A stretch of DNA of 63,966 bases, counting the filler, from Rhizaria sp. SCN 62-66 (Eukaryota): the NCBI GenBank assembly GCA_001724265.1. It is 4 parts of 4 records of this genome, joined end to end, with 100 filler letters (N's around TTAATTAATTAA, not from the genome) between each part and the next. Parts side by side here need not be neighbours in the genome. Positions count along the whole stretch, not along the records: positions 1 to 18,944 come from MEDY01000471.1; 3 more parts are not named here. One strand, written 5' to 3'. Under the pieces are notes generated by a model. That model did not search any database. It saw only the letters and a list, made by a program, of their open reading frames with translations, and had not been told where the DNA came from. The number at the start of each line of letters is the position of its first letter. The first letter of the stretch is position 1. This document shows positions 1 through 56,882 of this stretch, piece by piece. The position numbers and the translations under genes are program-made.

Positions 1-61
1 CCCCCCAACCCCTTAAACAGCACGCGCTCGACGTAGCCCGTCTCGACATCACGCTGCAATT

Positions 62-2227
62 ATGTCTGACGACGAGTTCCACGACTTTTCCGACGGCGCA
101 TCGGCCAAGCAAGCCGCCCGCGCCCAACGCTCTGCCAACAACGCAAATGCAAACTCCAACTCTAGCAACAAGCGCGCCACATCTGCCAAGTCCAGCACTG
201 ATGCTGCCTGCAAGTCCCCCGTTGCTGCTGCTGCCCCTGCCCCTGTAGCGGCGGCCGCGGCGTCGTCGCCCGCGGCGCCGGAGCCCCGGTCGATCCTGAC
301 CTCGATCCCGATCGGCATCGGCGCCGCCGACAACCTCGTCGAGTCTGTCGACTTCGAAGGGATCCCGCCGCCCGAGGCTGACAGCGAGGACCTCAGCGTC
401 GTCATTGACCAGACATTCAACGTTACCTCACGGCAGTTCTTCGAGCTTTTCCTCGCCGACCGCGCGATCTTCCCTTTCTCCGAGTTCCACCACCTCCGCG
501 GCGACAAGGACTGCCGCACGACGCCGTGGCGCCTGCTTAAGGCCTCCGACTCCCCCGATGCCGCCGCGACGCTTGCCGCCGACCCGCGCCTTACCGCCGG
601 CACCGTATAGCGCCGCATGAAGGCTCAGCTTAAGGTTGACTCGGCCTTCTCGCGCCTCCACAAGGTCCAGCGCTTGGTTCCGCTCGACGATGGTTTCCTC
701 ATGATTTCCCGTGGCAACACGCCCGACGTGATGTTCGGCTCCCAGTTCGCCGTGACGGACCTCTGGCGGCTGCGTGACGTGCCCGGCGCGCGCCAGTGCC
801 GGCTCGAGATCTCGCTCGGCGGCGCTTTCCCCGACGCCGGGTGGGCCGTGCGGATGCTGATGCCCGTCATCACGTCGCGCATCAAGAACGAAGGGCAGGA
901 GATGTGGATGCGGTGGGCCGAGGTCGCCAAGCTCCGCGTCGGCAAGCTGGCGCACGAGCTCACTAACAACAGCAACAGCAGTAACAACGACTCGAGTAAC
1001 AGCGGAAGCAACAGCAGCAGCTCGAGCAATAACAGCTCCAGCGCGACTGCTGCTGCTGCTGGCAAGAGTCCTGCCTCAAGCAACCCTTAGATCTCCACTT
1101 CCTTCTCATCGGCTTCCTCTGCGGCAGCCAAGAGCGCCGGCACGGCTGGCACACGCCTCGGCTCCGGCAGCGTCTCCGAAGATGACGATCCGGCCCGCCG
1201 CACCGCGCCCTCCACCAGCGTGCCGTCGTCGTCCCTGGTCGCCTCGCGCGGCGGCTGCGTGCTGCTTGAGGACGACCCCGCCGTTGAGGGTCTTAGTGAC
1301 GTCGAGGAAGCGCGCGAGCGGACGCTGCAGAAGCTCAAGGCGATTGAGAACGCGGCGTCCGACGCCGAGGTGGGCGAGGAAGAGCGCCGCCAGCAGGAGG
1401 CGTTTATTCGGGCACAGGTGCGGGCGCAGCAAGCGGCGATCGCAGCGCGCGAGCGCGAGAAGCAGCTGCTGCGCGAGCAGTTGGCCGCGCAGGAGGCCAA
1501 GAAGAAGGCCATCGCCGAGCAAAAGCGCCAGGCGGCCGTGGCGGCAGCTGCTGCGGCGGAGAGCGGCGGCACTGTCACAAGCTCCAAAGCCATCGACGCA
1601 CTCCGTCTCTCGTCTTCGTCTAACGCCAACGGCAGTGGCAGCGGTGGCGCGGGCAGCGTCAAGAGCCCCGCGTCTGGCCCCGCGAGCGCGCCCGCCGGGA
1701 GCGACGACGACGAGGAGGACGACGACGACGACATGAGTGAAGAGAGCGACACCCCCGCCGAGGATGTTGCGCTTATGGGCCCCGAGGAGTTCGCGCGGCA
1801 CGAGCGCAGGCTGCTGCGGCGGGCCAAGGCGCGCCGCCAACGCACGCGCCGCCTCATCAAGGCCGGCAAACTGCCCGCTAACGCCCTCTCTAGCCCCGTT
1901 CCCAACAGCAACAGCAACAAGAGCGGCAGCACGGCGGCGAGTGCAGCTGGAGGCTACGACAGCGACGCGTCGCCCGCGGCGTCCCCAGCCAGCACCACCA
2001 GCGACGGGGTGAGCCCTGACGCAGCCTCGCCCGCCACCGCGAGCTCCGCCACGGGTTCCGCCGCGAGTTCCGCGAGCTCCGGCGCGGGCACCAACAGCAA
2101 CACGCCGATGACGTTGGCGCAGATCGCGGCCAAGGAGGCGCAGGTGCAGGCCGAGCTCGAGGAGCAGAACAACCGCATGTGCGCGCGTCAGTGCCGCCCG
2201 CAGCAGGGCAGCTGCACCGTCATGTAA
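62..2227 (+). CDS. VASt (StART-like sterol/lipid transfer) domain protein with coiled coil and C-terminal CaaX motif; read through two in-frame TAG codons
   Basis: ORFs 62-610, 617-1090 and 1220-2227 share one frame and are separated only by TAG at 608-610 and 1088-1090. VASt-like motifs lie on both sides of the first TAG (VVIDQTFNVTSRQFFELFL...TTPW; NTPDVMFGSQFAVTDLWRL). The protein ends CTVM-TAA. Confidence 0.8.
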
Positions 2228-3985
2228 GCGGAGCGCGCGATGGAGCGTACAGTGCGCTTAGATGACGTTTGATCGCGCAGGGTAGAAGCATTGCCATGTC
2301 ACGTGTGATGCGGCTTAGCTTAGATGCGGTTGGTATCGTCGTGTCCGCGGTAGCTGCACTGGCGTACAGAGATGAGTCGCTTCGAGAGCGGACGTCTGCC
2401 AATGATCAGGAGTGGACATGAGCAATTATTGGTGTGCGTACATGCACTCTAGCTTATGCAAGTGTATGTGTGTGCATACGTCTGCTTGACGTTGTTTGAT
2501 TGCACCACGAACGAGGACGAAAAGAAAAGAACAAGAGACTTAGTACTAGAACAATAACGACACGTTTGCTGCTGTGTTTTTGTTTTGTACATGTCGAGAA
2601 ACAACTGGTAACGAACATGTGAGTGTACCTGAGATCATTGCTGTTTCAATCAGGTGACTCGTGGAAGCTTGTTGTGGTTTAGCTGTTGTGGTATGAGGGG
2701 TAATAATTAGGTTGTTATTATGAGTGTAAATGTTTTGGTGTTTTATTGTGACGATTTTTTGTTTCTTAAATTGTGTGCTGTTGGTTCAACAGTCGTGTTC
2801 GTGTACTTAACGTCTGTACTGACGGGAATTTATGTTTCTTTTTTTGTTGTTTTGTTCAATTGCTGCTTTAATTGGGTTTGTATTTGTGGTAGTAGCACCC
2901 TGTTTGATGTGACTACCGTGCTAATGCTCCTCATCAGTCAGCAACTGTGATATATCTGAAGACATCGCAGAGCGTTTCATTACTCGCACATATTTGAGTA
3001 TGCGTTCTGAATTTCTGCATTTATCATTAAAACACAATGTGGCACACACAAGTAGAAATCCGGACGTACATGTGTGCGTCCATTAGCTCGAGTAACACAA
3101 TACAACATAAAATATGTCGCCGTATGCATGTCAAGCTACGAACGGTCCAAGCGTGGTCAGGAAAGTCATATGAATTTCAGAAAAAGTGTAAGGCATAAAA
3201 AGTATGCCAACTCCGAAACGATTTCAAACTTCACTTCGATCATAAAAATAGGGGAAGAAGCAATAAAAAATTAAATTTTAAATGAATAAAATACAATGGA
3301 TAAAATCCCCAAATTTATTATGTTGTATTTAGGTTGATAATCATTCGTGTTTGATAAAGATAGTCAACTTCGTAAGATTCTTATAGTCAAGCTGGGACAG
3401 AATTCAGACGTGCAAGCTGAGCTTACGGTATATGACACCGACATACAAATCGGTGGGTGGCAAACGAAATAAAGTTGCAATACTAAATAAAACATTAGCC
3501 CGCAACAAACATGATTACGTGAAAAACAAACAAGCAAACTCGCACACAACACAACAACAGAGAGGGAGAGAGGTTATAGTCCGCATTCGTAACACAAAGG
3601 ATCGTGAAAAAGACGACAAAAAGACGCACACAAAACAACAACTGGACAATTTCGAGGCAATTCATGCATCTACGCACATGACAAAAGCCAATAAAATTAC
3701 TGATAAGATACACACACAAGGATGGCGAACTTCATTTCGCCCATTTAAACCACCGCGACAGCCATCATATCCGTCTCTTGACGGTTATTACAGCAACGCA
3801 AATACACTTTCTCGTACAAAGAGAAGTCACACAAAGTGATGCCTCTCAAAGGATGGATCAGGTTGCAAGCAAAGACTTTGTGCATGCACAGAAGTCCATC
3901 GTTTACACAGAGCGTGCTTACAGTCAGCACACAGAACACACAACTTCGCATCACCTCAACTCAAGACTGCGACCGAGCGGTCTGC

Positions 3986-6900
3986 TTACTGGTTGAAGGG
4001 CGGCGGCGGCGGCGGTGGCGGGTGGCCGGGGTCCGCGTCGGCCGCGGGGGTCGGCGGCGGCGGCAACGACATATTGGGCGCCTTCCGCGTGCCACGCGCT
4101 GTCGAAAACGAGTTGCCGCTGTTCCGTGTGGGCGACGGTGACGGCACAGGGCGCGCAGGAGCAGGCGGGGGCGATGGGGTCGGGCGCGTGACAACGGGGG
4201 GCGGCGCCGCCGCAACCATCAGAGGCGGCGGCGGAGGCACGGACGCGCGGCCCGTCGCGGGAGGAGCCTGGTGATCGTGGCCGTGACCACCCTCGTTCAC
4301 GCTGTTGTGCTGCGACACAGCGCTAACGTGCGCACTCGCGCTAGCACTGGCGCTGCCGCCGGTGTAGCTGCCATTGCTTGCGACTTGGTCGGGGGTCGAG
4401 GCCTCGTTGGAGGACGTCTTAGAGACGTTTTGCGAGCGCCCATTGGCGCTCGAGGTGGCCGCACTGCGCTGCTTGCTGTTCGCATACGCAAACATGTTCT
4501 TTCGGACCGTTGTGCCGCCAGAGCCGCCGCTGGGCGACGCAGGTGAACCGGGCGGGACGAGCGTGTAGATATTGCCGCCGCTGCCCGCGGTGTGGACCCC
4601 GTGCAGCCCGGCGTTGCTCGTGGACGTGTTGAGCGCGCCCAGATTGCTGCCACCGCTGGCAGAGCTGCCGCTGTGGCTCAACTGCGCAAAACCGCCGCCG
4701 CCGCCGCCGGCCGAGGACGACGAGTGCACGAACCCGCCTCCGCTCTGCGAGGTGAGCCCCATGCTCGACTCGCTCTGCTGCAAGCCGCCGCCGCCCGCGC
4801 CGACACCGGTGAAGCTGTTACTGGCGGAGATGACGGAGCTGGCGTGGCCGATCGTACTAGCGTTGGTGGGCGCAGACGGAAAGTGGCCGATGGCTGACGA
4901 GTCGAGCATCGAGCCTTGGCTGAGACGCACTGTGCGGCCGCCGGGAGCGATGACGGAGGATCCGGGCACGACCACGGTCGGCTGCGGTACCTGCGACTCG
5001 GAGAACGGAATCAGCGGGGTGAGATTCACCGTGGGCTCGTTGATGCCCTTGTTGGCTAGCAACGATGTGACTTCCGCGATGGCCTTGTCGCGCGCAGCGA
5101 CGTCGGCCTCGCGCTCGCGGAGCCGCGACTGCAGCGTCTGCAGCGCGCGCTTGTCGCGGGCGGCCTGCTTGTACGCGTCGCTCACGCCGGACATCTGGGT
5201 CACGGACTTAGCTTGGTAGTTTTCGACTTGCGTGACACCGCGGAAAATGAGGAGGAAACGCGGGATAAACAGCAGCGACAGCGATGAGATGACAATGTAG
5301 GCGATGAGCCAGCCGCGAATGATGATCGAGATCTCGGGCGCGAAGCCGGTAACGACGAACGAGACGAGGAACGCGATGACTGCGATGACGGTGAAGTTGA
5401 CGAGCATGAGCCCGATGTACTTGGCCTCGCCGAAGTTCGCGCTCTCAGATCGCGTGCGCACAGCGAGATAGAGGCCAGTGAGCAGGATCGCGCCGTTGAC
5501 AGTAAGGAAGACTGTGGTGTAGACACGCTCGTCAGACCGGCAGAAGTAGCCGACCGAGAAGGAGCTTGAGAGCGCCTCGGGAGTCATGCGTGCAGGCTCG
5601 TGGATCGAAAACACGATGAGAATGACGATGTTGACGATTAAAATGCCGAGAGTGCCGAGCAGCACGTACAGCTCCGTGTACGACGCCTTGCTTTGCAGAC
5701 TGCCGGCGTTAACAATCTGCTTGATGCGATGCAGCTTAAACACGCAAGCGCCGACAATCAACGAAAATGCGAACAACAGCGCCCAAATAGTGGCGTTACA
5801 TGAACCGTCTGAGGTATAGAGCCCATCGGTGAGAATGCCAACGCCGGCAATGATGCCGCCAACGCACATGAGCGCGCAGAGGAACGGCGAGCACGCGCGG
5901 ATGATCGGGTGTGCGTAATTCCACAACACAACCACCAGACACATCGCGGCGAACGCCATGACTATAACAGCTGCGGCGATGACGGCGCCGCGTGAGCCGG
6001 AGTCGAGCGTCCACAGTGTGCGTACGCGGGAGCACACGGGGCCTTCGACCATGACGACGCCAGCCCAAGGCCCTGAGGTGGGGGCGCCGTCGACGACGGT
6101 GACGGTGATCGGCTCGGTGCCGTCGTCGCCGCCGCCAGTGGCCGCGATCGTGAACTCGCCCGAGCATGTGCAGCGGCGGTGCAGGCATATGCCGAGCCCG
6201 GAGCACTGCTCGCACGCGCTGGCGTTGACCGGGAACGCGCCGAAGAGGATTTGTCCGTTATGCGCGGAGCAGAATGTCGAGTCAGTGGAGCACGAGCTGA
6301 TTTCATCGCGGGAAACCTCGGTGATGATGCCGCGGCAGTAGGCTGGCATGGCGTCGATGAGCTTGGGATTGCTCTGCGCACACGCCATCTCTTCGGCCAT
6401 CGTCGGGTAGTCGAGCACAGCGCCCTTTTGGTACTTTGCGCGGAGTTGACGGATGAACTTGTCAGAGAGCTGCTCACCCAAGTCGACGTAGTTGGTGGGG
6501 AAAACATCCGTATAGCCGTCGTTGCCTTCTATGAGGTACACGGACGTCATGAGCGTGTACGTCGCCGTGTCGTCGAGCAGAATCCAATCATCCGCGGCCG
6601 CAGTCGAAACGGGCCGCGGGCCGGCGGCAGCAGGAACGTAGATCTCAAGCACTTTGTTCTTGGCGTAGGTGGGATTGAGGATGTAGCGCATGTTGGTCTG
6701 CAGCAAACGCGCGTTGACGGCCTGGTTGGAGACTTCCATCATCGCTCTGATCTCCGCGCCAGTCATGTTGACGTAGCCGAGGTTGTTGGCGAACGGCAGT
6801 ACCAAGTACGCGTCGATACCCATGACTTCAAACGAATCGTCGTCATCACCGTCACCAGCTGTGGCAGCTGGCAGCGCGGCAGTGACAAAGTCAGCAGATA

Positions 6901-8734
6901 TGTCACTACCATTGTCAGACGCAAGCTCCCCTGCAACGTCGAGACCAGACGCGGCGGCGTTCGCAAGCGTGCTTTCGCGGTTCGCGCCAGCGTTCGTGCC
7001 ACGCGTGTTCGCATTCTTGTTCGCATCCGAAGCAGCAGCAAGGAACCTGTTGCTGCGCACAGCGCTAGCCCCAAACCCGGACGTGGATGCAGTGTTGAGT
7101 TTCGACCGCAGATGCTGCTGCTTGCGCTGGATGGAGCTCAGACTCGTCGTTGAGGCAGTGGTTGCGCGCTGGACGAGGCTCGCACGCAGAGCACCAGAGT
7201 TGATTGCACTGAGGCACTTACGCGGGGGCGCGAGCGGGCACAGCTCGGCAAACACATCCGCCACAAGGCTATACCAACACAATTATGATACAAGTTGAGA
7301 TGACAAGAAGTGATTACGAGTGAGCACAATTGAAGGTAAAACTGACGTATTCAAATAGAGTCGATAAGAGAAGCACCTACATTTTCTGTGGGATATACAG
7401 ATCGATTCATGTACTTAATACATCAAAATTTCTAAGGGCACGTACCGTCCAATAGGACATGGGCCGACACGACAGCCATAGTAGTTTGACATTGGCTCAC
7501 GTTCAGTCAAGTTAGTCAACTCCGCTCGGCCGATAATGTACGTGATATTACGGAGAAGCTTCGCCGCAGGGTCACTGAAATACGAGTTATTCATGATGTT
7601 ATACTTCGTTTGAAAGTATTCTTGCGTCTCGTCGTTAATTGGACAAGTTTTGTTATTTGTTTTCAGCGTCTTGGCGACCCGCAGCACTTGCGTGCCTTGC
7701 GGAAACGGGAAGTTCTCCGACAGAGGTTCGCCGTCAGACCGCACGGGCGGTGCGTACACACTCTCCCTAATAAGTGTCGAACCGTTGAACTGGGCCGAGA
7801 AGTAGTTCAGGTCAATGCCGTAGTTTGTCCCTGTGCCGGCGACGATATAGCTCTGGTTGAACTTGTTCACGAGGAGTTGCGGTGTTGCGGGGACTTCTGC
7901 GGCCGGAAGCATCGAGAAGTTGCCCATAATGATGTAGATGTTCACGTCCTCGTACAGAGCAGTGTCCGTGAACGAATTCAGATCATCGCGGTTGATAAGC
8001 GCGACAATGACATCGACACCGAGGCGCTTGAGCGAGGAAACCTCCTTGCGGAGCTAGCGTGAGTAGTTGTCGATTGTGACCTCGCCGATATGCGGGATAC
8101 GCGCCTCGTACGACTCGACGACAAGTGAGATAAACCCGACAGTGCCGCCGCTGGGAGACATCTTGCGCACAGCAGAACGGGAGATTGTGCCAAGCTTGGA
8201 GGAAATATTCATATTTGTGCTCACGAACTCCAGCGGTGGATTAGCATCCTTAGTCGTTTCATTAAGGTAGTAATTAACATCTTGTAGTTTGGCGTACAAA
8301 TCGCGACCAGAGAGCGCAGCAACGTCGTACTTGGCCCGCTTCATGCACTCAATCATGGGGCCAGCGCCGAACGAGTTGTAGTACATCGAGCCCCAGAGGA
8401 AACTGCCAGCGTCAACAGTGAGGGTTTCAGGCAGGTCCTCACGAATTGCCTCGAAAATGCCCTGTCGACGCGCACAACCACCGAGACACGTAGAGTCCTG
8501 CAAGTCATAGTCGAAAGAGTGTCCGTTGGTGGTGCAGAAGACGTTACCAGAGGTTGCTTGTGTCACTCCTCCGGCCACGTATCCGGACACAATCATGCTC
8601 AGCTGGTGCACAGCCGCCGCCGCAGGGGTCAACGCGGCGGCGATAAGGCACGTTGCGAGGGCCAACATGGCCCAGAGTGGTGAGCGGGCATCGCGCAGGG
8701 GCGTGGCGCGGCGATGCTCGGATGACTGCGACAT
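3986..8734 (-). CDS. Class C (GABA-B-like, 7tm_3) GPCR with signal peptide, 5'-nucleotidase-fold ectodomain, Cys-rich/EGF-like stalk and Pro-rich tail; exons 8734-7446 and 7268-3986; in-frame TAG at 8054-8056
   Basis: 5'-nucleotidase-like motifs: LGGCARR, VDAGSF, LKRLGVDVIVAL, CRVGPCPIGRLVAD (spanning the intron), INSGALRAS, VLPFANNL...MTGAEIRAMME, YLIEGNDGY. Class C 7TM motifs: HPIIRACSPFLC, KLHRIKQI, NFGEAKYIG, LFIPRF. A GTACGT...AG intron at 7445-7269 restores the frame. Confidence 0.8.
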
Positions 8735-10045
8735 TTCGCACTCCAGACTGTCGGATCAGAGTTTGGAGCGAGAGCGGAAAAGCACGTCACAGCGCCACGC
8801 AACAACAGCGCAAAAGGGAGTTGTGGAGAGACCTAGGCGTGAACACGCCGTTGATGCTTGCGACAAGAGCCTTGACCAAGGTAGTTGGCAAGAAAGTAAA
8901 GGCAATTGCAGGAGCAAGCGCAAGGGCGAGAGCGAAGTAGCTCTGCGTCGGGCGACAGAGAAAATAGAGGCAGAGAAATGTTGGCACCGATTGTGAGTAC
9001 GAACAAGACGTAATTGCTAAATATACATGTAGAATGTGCAAGTCTCATGCTTGCGCGGTGTACCGAGCTCCCTTCATGCCATCAGGAGTGAGGACGAAAG
9101 GGAGGAGGAGCAGATCACAAACGCACGGCGTAGCGACTCTCATAAGTTATTTCAGAGGATTTGAGAATACAATACAACATTGCAATTACATCAAACACAT
9201 ATACAACGTATTGCAGCAGGAATGCACGAACAGACAAGGGTCCATGCTCATCGCGAAGATTCCGCTCCAGAGAACAGGAGGAGGTGGTGCCACCGCCTTG
9301 CCAAACTCGGAAACTCGGGCACGGCCATCTAAAACACATGAAAAGAACTTAAATCTTGCTGTGATAAAAAGAGAATGCTGCCGTTTTGATATATATTGTG
9401 TTTTGCACTGTATTAAATATATTAACACCGGTTTCATTCCACAGATATGCTGATATACCTCGTATATCAGCTAAGAGATGTCTTCATAAACATATTTTCA
9501 GGCATCCTGCAATACAACTAAAACTTACATAAAAGATATTGAATAAAATAAATACTAACATGCACCCGATATGTTTTAAAATTATTTTTGCCAAAAATAA
9601 GCATACTTTCACGACGAAAATATAGTTTATATAACTCGTCAAACGTGTGACAGAGAAATGCGATTTGCGACTCTGCACGCTTGCTTGGGGAAGCGAGAGA
9701 ACGCTCTCCAGGGCTACGGGGGATATGAGGTGCCCAAGGCGAGATGGTTGCTGACGCGGTGTGTGCTGCGACTCGAACTGGGACTGCGATTATCACTACT
9801 GTTCGTTGTAACTTAGCGATATAACACTCTTCCTGGGTTAATATTGCACGGATTATGCCATTTCCATTCACTTAAACTTTCAAGACACGCATACTCATCC
9901 TCTGCGCTTGTTCGCCCTGTTGCCGCTCGCCCCTCGTATTAACGCACTGCCTGTCCTGCCTCCGCCGACTCCGCACAGCACCCTTAGCTTTTCCTTTCAA
10001 CTCCACACCTCTTCTAGCCCGCCACTTGGCAGTTGACACCGCGCC

Positions 10046-13000
10046 ATGTCCCACATCACGGGCGCTCCGGGCCTGCCCGCGGCCTCCAGCTCCAACGCAG
10101 TCTCACCGCACCAGCAGCAGCACCAGCCCTCGACGTCAGCCTCGTCAGCATCATCAGCCGCATCGACCGCACTCACGCTCTCCGCGTCATCCAGCTTCCC
10201 CGCCCCGCTGCTTGCACCCGTCTCGCCTGTCAACAACAACAGCAGCGACAACGCCGACGTCTCCGCGGCCGCGCTGGCGCCCATCCCCGACTTCGGGGCG
10301 CTCGAGGAGCTTCCGCTGCCGTTCGACGTTGTCCCGCCCGCCATCGACTGGCCGCTCTCGCTCGCGACCTTCCCCACGCGCGGCCCCGTTGCTGGCGGCG
10401 GCACGGGCGGCCTCGTCCCCACCGTGCTGCCATATTCACGCGCCACCTTCACCCGCCCGCTGCCGCTGCACGAAACCCTCTACGGCGCGCTCCGGGCCGC
10501 GCCCGCGCTCACGTCGACGTCGCGCGCCCCCCTGCTGTCGCTCCCGGCCGCGGTCACGCTGCTCCGCGTTGCTTCTGTGCAGCCGCTTGCGGTGTTCCCG
10601 GCCGCGGACGACGTCGCCATGCGCGTCGTCGCGCGGCAGCGTGATTCGGCCTCGCTCGCGCGCGTTGCGGCGGCCGCCGCTGCGCTCGCCGCCGCACCCG
10701 CCGCCGCGGCCGCCGCAGCCAAGAAGGGGCCGGCCGCCGTGGCCGCCGCCGCCTCCGCCGCCACCGCTGCGGCCGCCGCGGCCGTTCCACCCACATCGAA
10801 CGGCGCGTTGACATCGCTCATCCCGACTGTGTTTCTCTCGCCGTCGACCACGGATCACTTCCACAACACTCAGCGTGTGACACCCACCTCTTCCAGCTCC
10901 ACTAGCTCGAGCTCTGGCTCTAAGAAAGGCAACCGCAGCACTTCGCTCTCCCAGACCCCCTCCGCCCTCACAGCTGCCGCCGCGGCCGCCGCCGCCAGCG
11001 CTGCTAGCGGCTGCGTGAACTCAGGCCCAGGCGCGATGCGCCCTCCTTTGGCCTCCGCGCTGCCGACCCCCGCGACGGCCCCGCTGCTGGGCGGCGCCGT
11101 CACCGCCCTGACCCAGGCCTCGGTGCTCTACGGCGCGTACTCGCCGGCAGTGGTTGCGAACCACCTCCGCGGCCTGCCTGAGCTGCGCGCCGCCGTGGGG
11201 CCGGCGCTGGCGGACGAGTTTCTCACAATCACGGCCACGGTCGAGCCCAGCTCTCCGTTGGCGCGCGCCGCGCAGCGCAGGTTGCTGGCCGCTGTGCTTT
11301 CTCTGGAGGCCACTGACCCAGCGCGCGCGCAGCGGCTGTTCACGGACATGGTGGCGCGGCTGGTCAAGATGCAGGCCGCGTGCGAGCGTCATCAGGCGGA
11401 GGAGCGCAGGCGGAGCGAGGCCCGCAAGGCGGCCGCCGCGGCAGTCGCGGCGGGCGAGACGGCCGCGGCGGAGGCGACTGAGGCTGAGGCGGCGGCCGTG
11501 GCTGCGGAGGCCGAGGCCGCGCGGCTGCAGGCCGTGCTGGACGATTTGGAGGACGAGTACGACGAGGAAGATGAAGACGAGGATGAGGACGAGGATGAGG
11601 ACGACGACGATCCTGAAGTGAAGGTCGCCAAGGCCAGGCGCGCTGCGCGCAAGCTCAAGCTCGCCGCTGCCACCACTGCTGCTGCCGCGGCCGCGACCGC
11701 CGCGACGACTGCCCGCGTCGTCGCCACCAAGGCCAAAGCCGCCACCACCGCCGCCGCCGCCGCTGCTGCTGCCGCCACCACCTCTGCTTCTACCAGCACT
11801 GCGGAGACTGCTGCGACGGCGGCACCGCCGGCGCCGACGCCTCTGCCAGTGCATATCCCTCTCTTTGCCCTGCTCTGCTCCCTCGGCATGGACCTCTCGA
11901 AGCTAGGCCGCGCCCGCGTCGTCCGCGCCCGCCGCCGCGCCGCCGCCCGCCGCGCCGCCGCCGCGGACCAAAAGGCGTTCCGCGAGGCCGAGGCCGCGGC
12001 GCTACTGCACGCCCGCGCCGCCGCGACCGACGCGCGGCTCGCCAAGGCGTCGGTTTGGGAGCTCCTCTGGGGGTCCAGCTCCAGTAACACCGCCGCGAAC
12101 GCCGCGACGCCCAACGGCGGCGGCAGCGGGAGCCCCGCCGGCGGCGCCTCTCCGGAGTCGCCAGCTGCGGGTGACAGCAGCAACAACAACAGCAGCGGCG
12201 GCGGCGGCGGTGCCAGTGAGAGTGGCAGCATTTCGCCCACGGCGGCGGCCGACAGCAGTGCAGCGACCGCGGCCGCAATCGCCCGGACGACAGCGACATC
12301 GCTGACGGCCGTGGCGACCGAGGCGCTTTCGCCGGCTGTGGCCGCCGCGGCCGCCGAGCCCGTCGACGACCGCGCGGCCGCCGCGGCCGCCGAGCGCGCA
12401 GGCCCCGGACCGCACTTGCGGCGGTTCTCCCTCTTCGCGCCGCTGCTGCTCGCGCTCACGCCGCTGCGGCCCGGCCGCACGCTGCACCTCGAGCCCGGCA
12501 CGCCCTTCGCGCTGGTGCACGGCACCGTCGCGCTCGCGTCCCCGGCCGCGATCGAGGCACAGGTGCTCGCGCTCGGGCCTTGGCACCGGCCCCCGGCGCC
12601 CGGCAGCGACGACGCGGCGCCGCAGCTCCAGGCCGCCGCCGCGGTGCCGCCGGCGCGCACGCTCACAACGGCGGACGCGGACTATGAGCCCTGCGGCTGC
12701 GCATACGCCGTCGGTTTCTCGCACTCACACAACAACAACAGCAACAATAACTCTAACTCCACAGCTCTTGTTGCCGCTGGCAGCCCGCGCAGTCCCACTT
12801 CTGGCTCCAGCGCCGCCGCCTCCGCGGCTGCGGGCGCTGCCGCCGGCGGCGTCGTCACGTCCACGGGGCCGACGGTCGCCCCGGACGGGCTGCCGCTGTG
12901 CCCGCTGCCGCTGCCCTGCCCCTGCGGCTCGCTGCTGCTGGCGTCAGCGCTGGTCTCGCTGACCACGGGCGCGTCCCCGACGGGCGCGGCGGGGGGCATC

Positions 13001-16000
13001 ACGCACGCGTCCGCGCACTCGCCGCTCCCCAGCGCAGCGAGTGCCGACGCCGATGCAAACAAGGCTAATACAGCCGCGAACGCGAACAACGCTGCTGCTG
13101 ACCGCAGTGATGTTGCTGCGCCGACCCAGCAGACGCCGACTCAGACGCCCCATGTGAACCCGTTGCTGTCGCAGGGCGGCGGCGTGCCCGGGCGCAGCGG
13201 CACCGTTGAGCTGCCCCCGCGCGCCGCCGCCGTCGTCTCGCCCTACGCGGCCTCGGCTTTCCGCGCTTCCATCCTCGCGATGTCGAGCTCCAGTCATCAC
13301 AACGCGAGCTCGTCCGGCTTTTCACCGACGCTGTCGCAGGGGCCGTCGATGCACCCCGGCGCTTCTAGCCCCGACAATAACGCTCTTACCCACGGTCCTG
13401 GCTCAGCATCCCCGAGCGCCAGCTCGAGTTTCTCCGGCGGCCTTGTGTTGACCGGCGTGGCGTCGACGTACGCCGAAGTAAGTTCCCCCTCGGACGCGCT
13501 GTCACCGTCCGTGGCGACCGTGAGCGAGCGTATGCGGATGCGTGAACGCGCGCGCGCCGCCGCCGCTGCCGCTCTGAGCCTCGACTTGGTCGAGCTCGAC
13601 GATCCGTACGCCAAGTCTGTCGCCATTGGCGGCGGCTGGGGGCAGGTGTCGCTGATTCGTCTGCCCGCTCTGCGCGCGCGCCCCGTCGCTCAGCCAGAGT
13701 TCGCCACTGGCGACGCCGAGTCTGACCGCGCGACGAAGCACACGGGCACCAACACGGACCCCGACTCGAGCGCCGCGGCTGCGGGCAATGACAACCACGA
13801 CAGCAACAAGTCTTCCGCCGCGGCCGCTGAAGCTGACGACGCGGGCCGTATCGAGATCGACACGAGTAAGGCCAACGGTAGCGAGAACGCTGCCGCCGCT
13901 GCTGCGGTCAACCCCGAGGACGAGCAGGGCTGGCTGTCCTGGTCGCTCTGGCTGGTTCCCTCCCTGGCCGCCACCGCGACTACCGCGGTTGCCAGCACCG
14001 TCGCCGCCACCGTTAACGCCACGTGGTCCACGGTCTCGTCCGCGGCCGGCGTGCTAATGTGCGCGCCCCTCAGCGTCTTCGGCTCCGCGGCCACGCAGGA
14101 CGACCTTTACGCGATGGCCAGCCGCAACGGCAACGGCGACGATGACGATGACGACGATGAGGACGCCAAGGCCGACGCCGCCGCCGCGGCCGCCGAGCGC
14201 GAGCGCGAGCGCGACGAGTCCGGCATGAGCCGGCGCCGTGGCACCGGCTCGGGCGGCTTGACTTCCGCGAAGCGCGACCCCTTAGTCTACCGCGGCACTT
14301 ACATGATCGCGCCCGCGCGCCACCACCGCATCCTGGTCGGGTTGGCGACTCCCGTCACGATCACGATCGAGGCCGAGCCCGTCACCAAGGACCTCGGTAA
14401 CGGCGCGAACAGCGGCGCCAGCACGACCGTAACCAGTCCTGTCTCCGGTGGAAGCAACAACGGGAGCAGTGCGACGACGACGCTGAGCCGTGTCGGATCC
14501 GGCGGCAGCTCCGGCGCTCACTCGAGCTCAAGCGGCAGCGCCAGCGGAGGCGCACACAGCGACATCGGCGCCCCCGAAGGCGCGTACTCGCTCACTCTGC
14601 CCGCCGGCCAGGCGCTGCTGCTGCCGCCGTTCCGCATCTGCGTCGTGTCGCCGCTGGACACGTCCGTCGCCGCGGCGATGCTGCTGCTCACCGCCACCAG
14701 CACGGCCACCGCGGCCCCCGAGCCGCTCTGTTCCTTCGCTTCGGCGTTCCCGCCCGCTGTCGCCGCCGCGTTCGACCCCGCCACCGCAGCCTCCGCCGCC
14801 ACGGCCACCACGGCGACCGCGATCGCCGCCGCCGCCGCGCCGTCCCCGTCGGCCGCGGTGCTCTACCCCGCGCAGGCCCCGCTGCCCGCGCTGCTCCAGG
14901 CCGCCGCGCGCGCGCTGCCGGCGCCGCCCGCGTCCGCGCTCGCGATTCTCGCGCGCCCCGCCGCCGCCGCCGCCGTGTTGGCCCGGCTCGGCGCCGAGAG
15001 CGTCACCCGCAACAGGCTGTACGCGAGCGGTGAGCTGCTCTTCCCGCCCGCGTCGCTGGCGCCGGTGTCTCTCGACGCGGCGTCGGCGGCCGGGCTGAGG
15101 ACGCTGGTCTGCGCGGCGGCGGGCAACGGCCACGGCAACGGCTCGGGCTCGGGCTCCGGCACTGGGTCGGCGGCGTCTATCAGCCACAACACCAGCAGCA
15201 ACAACACGCCGGGCGGGTCGCCGCGCGCGAGCCTGACCACGATCAACCCCTTCAACTCCAACAACAACAGCGACAGTGCAAACAACGGCAACTGCAGTGC
15301 GATGAGTAACTGCATCGCGACCTCAGGATCCAGCTCCGTCGTCGTGAGCGCTACCTCTGCCATGTCCGCCGCCTCTTCTTCCTTGGCTTTACACGGCGCG
15401 CGCACCTTTGCTCTCTCGCAGCACGCGAGCACGGTGGGCCGCCTCCACGCCGCGCTCACGGCCTCGGCCCCCGCGACGCGGCTTAACTTCGCCGACGACG
15501 TCGTCGCCGCGCTGGGCGAGGACTACTGGCCCGACGCCGCGCCGCACGCGCTCTGGTGCGGTCAGGGGTCGCGGTATGTCGCGTCGCACGGACTCGCCGC
15601 GACTTTACTCGCACCGACAGCGTCCTCGTCTTCCGCCGCCGCCGCAGCCGCCGCCGCTGCCGCCACGGCCGCCGCCGTGCGCATCCGCCGTGCCGGCGGC
15701 GCCAGCGCTAGTGACGCGCCGACCGCCGCGGCCGCGGCCGCCGCCGCCGCTGCCGCCGCGGGCGACGCCGTACGCAACAGCCGCGCTGACCCGGCGCTGG
15801 TGACGGTAGCCGAGGCGCTGCCGCTGCAACAGGGCACGACGCAGTACTGCACTGCGGGCTCGGCGCGGTGCTTCCCGGCCATCTCCGCCGCGGCGGCTGC
15901 GGCGGCCGCGGCGGCGTCTGCGGGCGGCAGCGCGAGCGGCGCCGAGCCCAGCGCGGGCGTGGCCGCCGGCACGGACTCGGCCTGGCCGGGGCTCGGCCGG

Positions 16001-18394
16001 CACTGGCGCGCGCTGACCTCGATCGCGCTGGCGCGGTCGTTCTCGCTCTTCGGACAGCGGTACCTCGCAGGCGTCGCGGAGTCGCTGGCGCAGCTGCACG
16101 CCACGGTCGAGTCCGCCGACGCCGCCGCCGCCGCCGCCGCCACGGCTGCCGCCAGTAGCAACAATAACAACAACCAGGCTGAAGACGGCGAGTACGGTGC
16201 GAGTCACGGTGACGCCGAGCAGACCGCCGCCGCGGCCGCTGCCGCGCTGCGCGAGCTCACCGCCCAGCTCAAGGACACAAAGTCACGCTGGGGCGAGGCC
16301 TTCACCTCTGCGCGCGCCGCCGTGTCGCTCTACACCACGGCTGCGGACACGATCATCTCCGCGCCGTTCATCGCGCGCGTTGCCGTGCGCTGCATCGGTG
16401 CGCCCGCAGCGGCCCCGGCGCCGCCGCCGAGCGGGTTCGTCATGAGCACGAACCCCAACAGCGCGGCCGCGGCGGCGGCGGCGGTGCCCGCGGCTCCCGT
16501 CGGTCTCGGCCCTGGCGTGGCCGCCAACGCGACTCTCGTGTACGTTTGCTGAACGATACATCTCAATGAGAACAACACTATTTTTATTGAAAAACGATAT
16601 TTTAGATCCTTTTTATCATTCAAATCTCATCTTTATATCTCAATGTTCATCACTTCTGCTTTTCTTTCAATGAACTTGCACAGCGGCCAATGGGATCTCG
16701 CGGCGGCCCTCGCCGGCACCGGCACGACTCCTTCCAGCAACAGTGGCTCCGGCGCCGCGGGCTCCAGCGCCAGCGCCTCCACGGGCAACACGGGCGGCTA
16801 CCTCTGGTCCTGGCTGCCCCCGCCCGCGGCCCCGGCCCCCGGGTCCAAGAACGCCGACCGCGCGGTGCTTTCCGCGCGCGCCGCGTCGTTCGCGCGTCGC
16901 CGGGCCGCCGGCCTCGCCGCGCTGCGCTCCGCCACGGCCACGCTCACGCAGCCCATCGCCGCCGGCGGTGCGGGCACCGGGTCCGCTTCGGGCAACGGAG
17001 GCGGGAGCGCTGTGAGCGCCGCGCTCGAGACCCAGCTGTTCCTGACGTCCTCCGCACGCCTGCTCGGCACGGCGGGCGTTGACCCGTCGGCCGCACTCGC
17101 GCTGCCGGCGCAGATCGCGCGCTCGGGCTTCGCGGGCGAGTACTCGCTGCTGTGCGCGCCTCTCGCCCTCACGCTACCCGCGCGCGTCAGCGAGGAGACT
17201 GCGGCGGCCGTAATGCGGCAGCAGGCGCTGGCACAGGCGCGCGCGGCGCTGAGCATGAATACGCCCACGTCGTTCACGGCTACGGCCGCGACGACGACGG
17301 CGACGGGCCCCAGCGCGCGCGGCCCCACCACGGCGACCGCGGTGACGTCGAGTGGCACCACGGCCGCGTCCCCGCTGCTGCTGGCCGGCGAGGGCGACGC
17401 CGCAGCCGTGGCCGCCGCCGCCGTTGCCGCCGCGGCCACGCTGCCGTCGGCGCACTCGCTGACGCTGGCGTCGATGCAGCCGTCGTCGTGGCCCGCCGCG
17501 GCTGCGCTTGTGCAGCTCGATCGCGGGCTCGCGGCTGCCGCGGCGGCGGCAGAGACGACCTCCGCCGCCAATGCCGCCGCCGCGATGCTCAACGACAACG
17601 GTCACGACGACTACGGCAGCAACGCGATGGCGGCCAGCGCGACGACGCCGGCGAACGCGCAGATTGCCGCCGCGGCCGCGGCCGCCGCTGCCGCTGCCGC
17701 CGCGGCGGCCGTGCTGCCGACCGAGTGCGTCGTGATCCCCGCGCTTGTCGCCGCCACGGCCCTTGTCTTCAGCGCGAAGGTCGCGATCGCGCTCGGCACC
17801 GCGGCCCGCCGCCTTGCCGTCGCGCTCGACGCAGCGCACCTGACCGAGTTCAAGCTCAAGGAGCGCGCCATCAAGACCGCCGCCGCCGCCGACAACAGCG
17901 CAGGCGCTGCCGCAATCGAGGCGGATACGGAGGCCGCGCGCGCCGTGCGCATCCGCGCCTTCACGGAGTCGCGCCAGATGCGCACGCTCACGCTTGCGCA
18001 GGTCACACACGGCTACTGCACGCGCGCCGCCGCCGCCGCCGCCGTGGCGAGCTCTATCGCGCGCGCTTGGCGCGCCCGCATCAGCGTCACCGTCGCCCCC
18101 GCGCTCGCCACTAGCAACGGCGGCACCGGCGTGGACGCGGTGCCAGTGGCCACGGGCAAGGGTAAGAAGGCTGCCGCCGCGGCCGCTGCTGCCGCAGCTG
18201 CTGCAGCCGCCGCAGCTGCTGCCGCCGCTGCTGCCGCGGCCGCTGCGGCTGCGTCCAGTGAGGGCGGCTGGGCGTACGGCGACAGGCTCAGTGCAGTGCT
18301 GATTGATGAGTGCGAGCAGGCGAAGGAAAACGCATTGGGGTTGTTTGCCGCCGTCAATGCCACGCTTGACGGTGCTATTTGCACGCAATACTGA
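10046..18394 (+). CDS. Very large (~2,700 aa) Ala/Ser-rich protein of unknown function; exons 10046-16539 and 16684-18394
   Basis: A 2168-aa ORF is joined in frame to a 583-aa ORF by a GTACGT...CAG intron (16540-16683). The gene ends in TGA. No domain recognised. Confidence 0.65.
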
Positions 18395-18774
18395 ACCTCC
18401 CTGCCATGATTCACTCGCATGACTTTCGAGTGAGGTTTGCAGTTCTTTGAAGTAATATGATCGCATATGTTTATGATCGCATTTGTTTTGTTTGTACTTC
18501 ATGGTCGATTGCGGTGCTTTCAATCACAATTGCGTATTGCTGTAGTGTGTAACAGACGCCATCATTGTTCTATTCGTTGTTTCTATGTTTAAATTCGTTA
18601 CAAAATGGTTGGTTTTGTGCAAGATGGTTAGTAAAGCCTCCGTTGTAATTGGGGGAATTTGTTTGATAAACATAACTTTTTTAAAGGCTCTATTGATTTT
18701 ATCTTGGTGGCGCGAAGATTATAGTTCCAACCACAAACGCCTTTGATGAAGCTCTTTTGCTTTGCCCTTGAGTT

Positions 18775-18944
18775 TTACTCAGGGGCATCTGAGGGAGTAT
18801 CCTTGCCATTGCTCGCGATCGTCTCGTCACTAGGCTCGGCGTTGCTGTTCTCCTGTGCATTGTTGTCGCGGCCCGCGTCGGCGTCACTGCTCTCCTGCGC
18901 TGGCTGTGATGCAGAGCCGCCCTCTCCACATCCCTGTAGAAGCT
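18775..18944 (-). CDS. Probable 3' end of a gene truncated by the contig end
   Basis: Open, coding-like frame ...SQPAQESSDADAGRDNNAQENSNAEPSDETIASNGKDTPSDAPE-TAA, followed by AT-rich sequence. Confidence 0.4.
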
Positions 18945-19044
18945 NNNNNNNNNNNNNNNNNNNNNNNNNNNNNNNNNNNNNNNNNNNNTTAATTAATTAA
19001 NNNNNNNNNNNNNNNNNNNNNNNNNNNNNNNNNNNNNNNNNNNN
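18945..19044. other. Artificial contig-join spacer
   Basis: N44 + TTAATTAATTAA (stops in all frames) + N44. Confidence 0.97.
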
Positions 19045-37919: not shown

Positions 37920-38019
37920 NNNNNNNNNNNNNNNNNNNNNNNNNNNNNNNNNNNNNNNNNNNNTTAATTAATTAANNNNNNNNNNNNNNNNNNNNNNNNN
38001 NNNNNNNNNNNNNNNNNNN
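37920..38019. other. Artificial contig-join spacer
   Basis: N44 + TTAATTAATTAA + N44. Confidence 0.97.
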
Positions 38020-56782: not shown

Positions 56783-56882
56783 NNNNNNNNNNNNNNNNNN
56801 NNNNNNNNNNNNNNNNNNNNNNNNNNTTAATTAATTAANNNNNNNNNNNNNNNNNNNNNNNNNNNNNNNNNNNNNNNNNNNN
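56783..56882. other. Artificial contig-join spacer
   Basis: N44 + TTAATTAATTAA + N44. Confidence 0.97.

Follow-up and report, generated by a model that had tools for sequence, protein, structure and literature searches.

We analyzed a window of 63,966 nucleotides, filler included, from the genome of Rhizaria sp. SCN 62-66 (GenBank assembly GCA_001724265.1), in which a gene on the minus strand (3986–8734) encodes a class C G-protein-coupled receptor (GPCR) with a 5'-nucleotidase-like ectodomain. The window is stitched from four pieces separated by runs of N (18945–19044, 37920–38019 and 56783–56882), and only positions 1–18944 map to contig C471. A model spliced from 8734–7446 and 7268–3986, with the ATG at 8734 and the TAA at 3986, forms a single frame of 1,523 amino acids in two exons, with an in-frame TAG at codon 227 (8054–8056) read as sense. 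The coordinates, strand and intron proposed in the initial annotation were borne out by this splice. Removal of the 177-nt GT..AG intron (7269–7445) restores a conserved CRxxxCxxGRLV motif, and the junction (GPCPIG followed by RLVAD) agrees with an orthologous protein, P0008, which is unbroken across the intron position.

From its N-terminus (8609–8734), with a signal-peptide-like hydrophobic stretch at residues 24–42 in a hydropathy scan, the protein continues into a 5'-nucleotidase N-lobe of metallophosphoesterase fold (residues 43–385; 7580–8608), where the TAG codon lies. The substrate-binding C-lobe comes in two parts, residues 415–462 (7172–7492, spanning the intron) and residues 579–712 (6422–6823), on either side of a low-complexity insert of ~116 residues (463–578; 6824–7171); orthologue P0008 alone has such an insert too, a shorter one. 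A Cys-rich stalk with ten cysteines (residues 716–848; 6014–6412), conserved across the close family, leads to a class C seven-transmembrane (7TM) domain (residues 855–1105; 5243–5995). Further on are a coiled-coil-like amphipathic segment, assigned by sequence pattern alone (residues 1128–1175; 5033–5176), in which 29 of 48 residues are the same in P0008, and a Ser/Gly-rich cytoplasmic tail ending in polyproline runs (3989–5032). Apart from the leader, this layout had been proposed before, and it holds; the TAG codon and the C-lobe insert had been missed.

Exon 2 matched the Pfam families 7tm_3 (97.6 bits, cut-off 33.5) and 5_nucleotid_C (44.6 bits, above cut-off). No Pfam family matched exon 1, although phmmer does match it to CD73 (E 4e-5). 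Pfam found no Venus-flytrap (ANF) domain in the window protein, whose ectodomain instead has the 5'-nucleotidase fold. With 13 N-glycosylation sequons upstream of the first transmembrane helix and the hydrophobic leader, the N-terminal part has the features of a large exported domain. An ESM Atlas search with the stalk yielded no usable match. The best PDB match of the 7TM domain, and its nearest solved relative, was GABA-B2 (E 8e-13), and hydropathy segments likewise agree with a 7TM domain. Across 52 aligned 7TM rows, C490 and C576 (P0001 numbering) are invariant and R514 and E614 are at least 90% conserved; we take these to be the Cys pair linking transmembrane helix 3 (TM3) to extracellular loop 2 (ECL2), the terminal basic residue of TM3 and the acidic TM6 residue of class C GPCRs. 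Three short contigs from an RNA run (X1, a poly-A library), possibly of DNA origin, match the gene at 3895–4142, 6289–6509 and 7575–7790. A contig of a second assembly (run X2, 7528–8621), which may come from the source sample itself, covers the TAG codon with no difference listed there.

The nucleotidase–7TM fusion is real. All four 7tm_3 matches in the genome have both nucleotidase lobes upstream. A tandem pair of paralogues on another contig (C78:135666–144827) carries both lobes and a whole 7TM domain in one open frame, in one case, P0003, as a 1,313-residue coding frame without an intron; the fourth paralogue has an intron inside its 7TM domain. A word-index homologue search with a paralogue returned two weak matches, so a full HMMER scan with paralogue P0003 was used instead, in which 31 of the best 150 representative matches have both parts (three being the genome's own receptors). 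Among these matches, P0008 is orthologous to the window gene, with 43.7% identity over 1,241 columns. Twenty fused matches were looked up and three had a species, namely Platysulcus tardus, Chloroparvula japonica and Pyxidicula operculata (a stramenopile, a chlorophyte and an amoebozoan), all from transcriptome sets. In a metagenome locus search we found one relative, with an open frame of 1,249 codons that has no TAG and ends in TAA. The ESM Atlas also holds a 72-member cluster with 7tm_3 and 5_nucleotid_C (score 0.87), which we treat as a lead only. The window gene is a real and intact member of a widespread, unstudied receptor type. The genome further encodes at least four G-alpha subunits.

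The ectodomain is, as judged from profiles and a model, a two-lobe 5'-nucleotidase fold. A profile built from 26 fused proteins covered the whole length of CD73 and of the Thermus 5'-nucleotidase (E 1e-111 to 1e-119, with CD73 at about 1e-111) and matched GABA-B2 over the 7TM domain. A single-sequence AlphaFold model was unusable (predicted local distance difference test score, pLDDT, 35). The comparison with CD73 proposed in the initial annotation was made with a model of paralogue P0003 from a 67-row alignment (pLDDT 85, predicted template modelling score 0.67), which superimposed on CD73 with Z 34.8 and a root-mean-square deviation of 2.3 Å over 499 residues, and on GABA-B 7TM domains with Z about 29. 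The model lies nearer to closed forms of CD73 (2.3–3.6 Å) than to open ones (11–13 Å), which is weak evidence on the real state.

We compared the window protein, its three paralogues and 23 matches, 27 fused ectodomains in all, with 13 single-domain enzymes from the same hit list; duplicates and five fragments lacking the N-lobe were left out, and CD73 numbering was taken from the family-profile match. We take D36, H38, D85, N117, H220 and H243 of CD73 to be the dimetal ligands and H118 the catalytic His, with R354, N390, R395, F417, F500 and D506 presumably forming the substrate and nucleoside pocket. The window protein keeps none of the seven metal and catalytic residues (Y52, A54, S111, G143, R144, N248 and G271 stand there); the altered motifs SGYVAG, DAGS, SGRD and VIVALIN, noticed at the outset, are all present. 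In the fused rows N117, H118, H220 and H243 are each kept 0 times out of 27, whereas the free enzymes keep them in 13, 13, 13 and 12 of 13 cases; D36, H38 and D85 survive in 7 of 23, 3 of 24 and 2 of 25 fused rows. Any one fused row thus keeps at most two of the seven, against six or seven in the 13 free enzymes. By its 7TM domain the window protein belongs to the class C GPCRs; lacking the catalytic site, it falls outside the 5'-nucleotidase enzymes. Elsewhere the genome encodes a separate 5'-nucleotidase that is anchored in the membrane, has a long cytoplasmic N-terminus and retains its metal motifs intact (L166:5027–7651, minus strand).

By contrast with the catalytic residues, the pocket is largely kept in the fused rows: R354 in 23 of 27, N390 in 26, R395 in 24, an aromatic Phe or Tyr at F417 in all 27 and at F500 in 26, and D506 in 24. 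The complete set occurs in 20 of the 27 rows and in the window protein, where it consists of R422, N453 and R458 in the first part of the C-lobe and F589, Y674 (Tyr for F500) and D680 in the second. Moreover, 25 of the 27 fused rows have Arg in place of one or more of the metal and catalytic residues, as against 0 of 13 free enzymes; the two rows without it are N-terminally truncated. Composition alone would give such an Arg with a chance of ~0.28 per row, and since the fused rows are related the count is not a p-value. Pfam detected Metallophos in 0 of 22 fused and in 11 of 12 unfused proteins. A receptor in which altered, metal-free chemistry still hydrolyzes the substrate and signals on turnover would likewise explain a kept pocket, and an Arg could stabilize the transition state; with none of the seven residues left here, and with replacements that vary widely across the family without a conserved new nucleophile or base, we consider such a receptor-enzyme highly improbable.

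We favor the interpretation, with a probability of roughly 0.6, that the product is a class C GPCR in which a 5'-nucleotidase ectodomain, catalytically dead yet still able to hold a ligand, would do the work of a Venus flytrap as a hinged sensor of two lobes. The proposal of a pseudo-enzyme turned ligand sensor had already been made from the window sequence; family-wide residue patterns and the fold now support it well, and the nucleotide or nucleoside ligand in that proposal is still an inference. Judging by the retained pocket, the receptor probably senses extracellular nucleotides. In the membrane-proximal C-lobe, the nucleobase would stack between F589 and Y674, with ribose and phosphate held by R422, N453, R458 and D680. 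The distal N-lobe might then close on the phosphate through an Arg (R144 here) rather than through metals, so that the ligand would be held and left uncut. An open-to-closed hinge rotation is known for CD73 and UshA; here it would be relayed by the disulfide-rich stalk to the 7TM domain and so activate a heterotrimeric G protein. The receptor would probably be dimeric, helped by the cytoplasmic coiled coil, and a likely ligand would be an extracellular 5'-nucleotide or a related nucleotide, for example from prey or lysed cells. A prediction of the homodimer from stalk, 7TM domain and coiled coil, with the alignment unused, scored 0.01 against a mark of 0.32 and gives no evidence either way. 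Synthesis of the full-length protein would rely on UAG being decoded as an amino acid, Glu being the most likely one.

Several points weigh against the hinged-sensor interpretation. That the ectodomain binds a ligand and closes, that the receptor forms a dimer and that it couples to a G protein are predictions, as is the ligand assignment; the structural model is that of P0003 and not of the window protein, and the homologues were picked by likeness to the query. None of the RNA contigs matching the gene crosses the intron or the TAG codon. The pocket residues sit in the motifs NxGxxR, PFxN and GGDG, which may also be kept for the fold, and seven of the 27 relatives miss one to three of them. 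The window copy also lacks the Arg that its closest relatives have at the H243 position. Lastly, its N-lobe has evolved faster than that of the orthologue (Tajima χ2 9.9, 12.9, 4.7 and 1.4 with four outgroups), an acceleration seen with three of the four (χ2 4.7–12.9).

The rate difference bears on a second interpretation, that the window copy plays the silent part in a heterodimer, as GABA-B2 does: ligand binding would fall to a paralogue, and the window protein would contribute its 7TM domain and coiled coil to trafficking or to coupling with a G protein. There are four paralogues, a coiled-coil-like segment is visible in the window protein and in paralogue B, the N-lobe is accelerated while the 7TM domain is not, the nearest solved 7TM domain is that of GABA-B2, and the large insert adjoins a pocket loop. 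Nevertheless, the window protein has the full set of six pocket residues and its C-lobe shows no significant rate excess, and we regard a silent partner as unlikely. Rather unlikely, too, is that the dead module binds something other than a free nucleotide (a protein, a nucleic acid end or a surface polymer) or has mainly a scaffolding role, in structure or dimerization. Many ectodomains of protist class C receptors, such as Kelch, RCC1, TIG and LamG, are not of the small-molecule kind, and the incomplete pockets in seven of 27 relatives fit such a role. On the other hand, of 147 C-lobe columns, those holding the equivalents of R354, N390, R395 and D506 rank near the top for conservation across at least three named supergroups, and there are several different former metal positions at which Arg has appeared. 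Both roles retain some probability because the pocket motifs may be partly structural, a quarter or so of the pockets (7 of 27) are incomplete and the N-lobe is faster.

The hinged sensor presupposes readthrough of codon 227. TAG was examined in sixty 10-kb stretches of the genome together with the window. In-frame codons with coding-like sequence on both sides were TAG in 17 cases, TAA in two (one of them an artefact of N) and TGA in one. Long frames ending in TAA (27 of 27) or TGA (16 of 16) were followed by non-coding sequence, whereas eight of nine ending in TAG were followed by coding sequence. Nine kinase matches carried a single TAG, and three that resembled intron 3' ends were excluded from the count. 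The only eRF1 gene found in the genome (C63:103370–103699), the other match reading as Pelota-like, itself contains an in-frame TAG. Collectively, these results make it very likely that TAG is a sense codon in this genome, with TAA and TGA as stops. An in-frame TAG in a gene with a fast-evolving N-lobe could also mark a decaying pseudogene, or the end of a secreted N-lobe fragment, all the more since TAG is a very rare sense codon (17 filter-passing sites in ~660 kb). However, the flanking counts, the contrast between frames ending in TAG and those ending in TAA or TGA, and the TAG in the sole eRF1 found all speak for readthrough, and the 1,296 codons 3' of the TAG are intact with a conserved 7TM domain; decay or truncation of the window copy is therefore very unlikely.

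The sequence comparisons point, with good though lesser confidence, to Glu as the amino acid that would be inserted. At the eRF1 site the human protein has Glu, and 120 homologues have Glu in 117 cases, Asp in three and Gln in none; this is the sole strongly conserved TAG site found. The receptor site is likewise opposite Glu in P0008. One tRNA with a CUA anticodon was found (C84:76008–76080; L019:1489–1561, minus strand). Among the tRNAs recovered, a set with no tRNA-Asp, it is nearest to tRNA-Glu(CUC) (score 47), followed by Glu(UUC) (38) and Gln(CUG) (31.5), and its acceptor and T stems are like those of the genome's tRNA-Glu(CUC). Three results do not favor Glu: Gln stands opposite the TAG of a diverged ubiquitin-like copy, E, Q and K at the TAG give nearly equal Pfam bits in six domains, and a neighbor-residue test over 25 sites gave 16.6, outside the ranges for both Glu (36 to 93) and Gln (-110 to 2). 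Gln, considered first, lost ground on the evidence of the eRF1 site and the CUA tRNA. Leu was rejected: it had the lowest Pfam score in seven of seven domains, and the CUA tRNA has a short variable arm.

The stop-reading motifs of the eRF1 protein are also altered, with T32S (Thr in 99 of 99 homologues), G57S (Gly in 118 of 120) and T58K (Thr in 119 of 120). T32 has been tied to reading of the G of UAG in the available part of one study (PMC5304391). Should this eRF1 still read UAG, it would truncate its own product, and a feedback loop could result. Annotation under the standard code truncates both the receptor and eRF1. In-frame TAG codons were noticed elsewhere too. A neighboring VASt-domain gene (window 17–2227, plus strand) is read through TAG at 608 and 1088, one of them within the domain, and a domain like group XII secretory phospholipase A2 (L089:6485–6940, minus strand) contains one.

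In the accessible sections of the literature on nuclear codes (PMC5304391, PMC11687900, PMC10553269), UAG is given as Leu in the rhizarian exLh and in phyllopharyngean ciliates, as Gln in Iotanema, Hartmannula, Trochilia and Protocruzia, and as Ser in Scotinosphaera; the ciliate PL0344 has UAA as Lys with UAG as Glu, and in peritrichs and Blastocrithidia UAR is Glu. With these reassigned codes the present genome shares a CUA-anticodon tRNA, UAG as sense and a change at eRF1 T32 (T32G in Iotanema as described there, T32S here). It stands apart in that UAG is apparently Glu while UAA and UGA are stops, and in that its own eRF1 gene contains TAG. A nuclear code with UAG as Glu and UAA as stop was not found in the parts of the published literature that our searches covered; such a code would add a new way to uncouple UAA from UAG.

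Published work has already described part of the receptor architecture. In choanoflagellates and further relatives of animals, the domain 5_nucleotid_C is named on "Glutamate receptors" (bioRxiv 10.1101/2025.04.15.649019; eLife 2025, PMC12716839), and the sections of these papers that we found name the C-lobe alone, with no mention of the N-lobe, catalysis or ligand (PMC12716839). These receptors and the ESM Atlas cluster share the pairing of 5_nucleotid_C and 7tm_3 with the window protein, and the choanoflagellate receptors, compared by description only, would belong to the same family. The difference is that the window family has a whole, catalytically dead two-lobe domain, while the choanoflagellate receptors are described, in those sections, by the C-lobe only. 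That only the C-lobe is named in print follows from the failure of Pfam to detect the dead N-lobe (0 of 22). Our literature searches gave no further description of the receptor, and in them a dead N-lobe with a kept pocket was not found in print.

With CD73, E. coli UshA, the Thermus 5'-nucleotidase (2z1a) and NadN, the window family shares a two-lobe fold of ~500 residues, Cys pairs in both lobes and the nucleoside pocket; unlike these enzymes, it has lost the dimetal ligands and catalytic His, gained Arg, and is fused to a stalk and a 7TM domain. Likewise, the window protein shares the class C 7TM domain, the TM3/ECL2 Cys pair and a cytoplasmic coiled-coil-like segment with GABBR2/GABBR1, GPR158/GPR179 and the metabotropic glutamate receptors, but has no Venus flytrap or Cache domain and a different Cys-rich stalk. 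The Venus flytrap, first put forward as the norm for class C, is so for the metazoan type. Outside animals many ectodomains are found: among 32 proteins scanned were ANF, PBP, Bmp, OpuAC, Cache, Kelch, RCC1, TIG and LamG, so that a missing Venus flytrap is not by itself unusual and the nucleotidase pairing is one arrangement within a modular family. Matches P0045–P0150 include ectodomains of Kelch with filamin, RCC1 with Calx-beta, TIG/PA14, LamG/pentaxin, Cache/VWA, Bmp and OpuAC, and several class C 7TM proteins with large ectodomains that have no Pfam match.

Extracellular nucleotides are known to be sensed by P2X, P2Y and plant lectin kinases, and the hinged sensor, if true, would constitute a route independent of all three. 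It would assign a concrete class of ligands to a widespread family of orphan receptors, whose under-description is explained by an N-lobe invisible to Pfam, and would bear on extracellular nucleotide sensing in protists, animal relatives included. A CD73-type hinge that drives a class C 7TM domain would be an activation mechanism unlike the Venus flytrap, and a UAG within the eRF1 gene bears on autoregulation of a release factor in a eukaryote. Taken as a whole, the picture of a eukaryote-wide, animal-lost purinergic class C GPCR family, in which a dead 5'-nucleotidase serves as a hinged nucleotide trap with Arg for metals, in an organism with an undescribed code (UAG as Glu, UAA and UGA as stops) and an eRF1 gene whose in-frame UAG possibly forms a feedback loop, is put forward tentatively, at slightly less than even odds.

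The origin of the fusion was considered with two trees. In the ectodomain tree, a quick tree with catalytic columns included and four partial rows omitted, 23 fused proteins fall on one side of a branch and 22 free ones on the other (Shimodaira–Hasegawa-like approximate likelihood ratio test, 95). In the 7TM tree the fused label needs six changes, of which at least three are forced. The two trees disagree on a single origin, and module swapping or poor resolution could account for this.

As for the lineage of the organism, searches with Sec61-alpha and eRF1 returned no close named relative, and two of the three named Sec61-alpha matches are presumably rhizarians. Several single-monomer ubiquitin genes (L049, L052, L053) have two extra starting residues and a three-residue C-terminal extension, and no polyubiquitin monomer junction was seen among them. 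The small-subunit (SSU) rRNA (L048:1501–5945) is highly divergent and 4.4 kb long, with four group I intron matches. In Helkesimastix, polyubiquitin insertions and a divergent SSU rRNA are described in the available text of one paper (PMC12930898). Ubiquitin, SSU rRNA and Sec61-alpha fit Cercozoa, which we treat as a lead only because no ubiquitin monomer junction was seen. The first SSU insertion is long enough for an open reading frame. Sec61-alpha (L007:8247–9251) adjoins the fourth receptor paralogue, and a 95%-identical Sec61-alpha and a 58%-identical receptor orthologue (P0012) each lie on a contig of 21,031 bases, which hints at conserved synteny in a relative.

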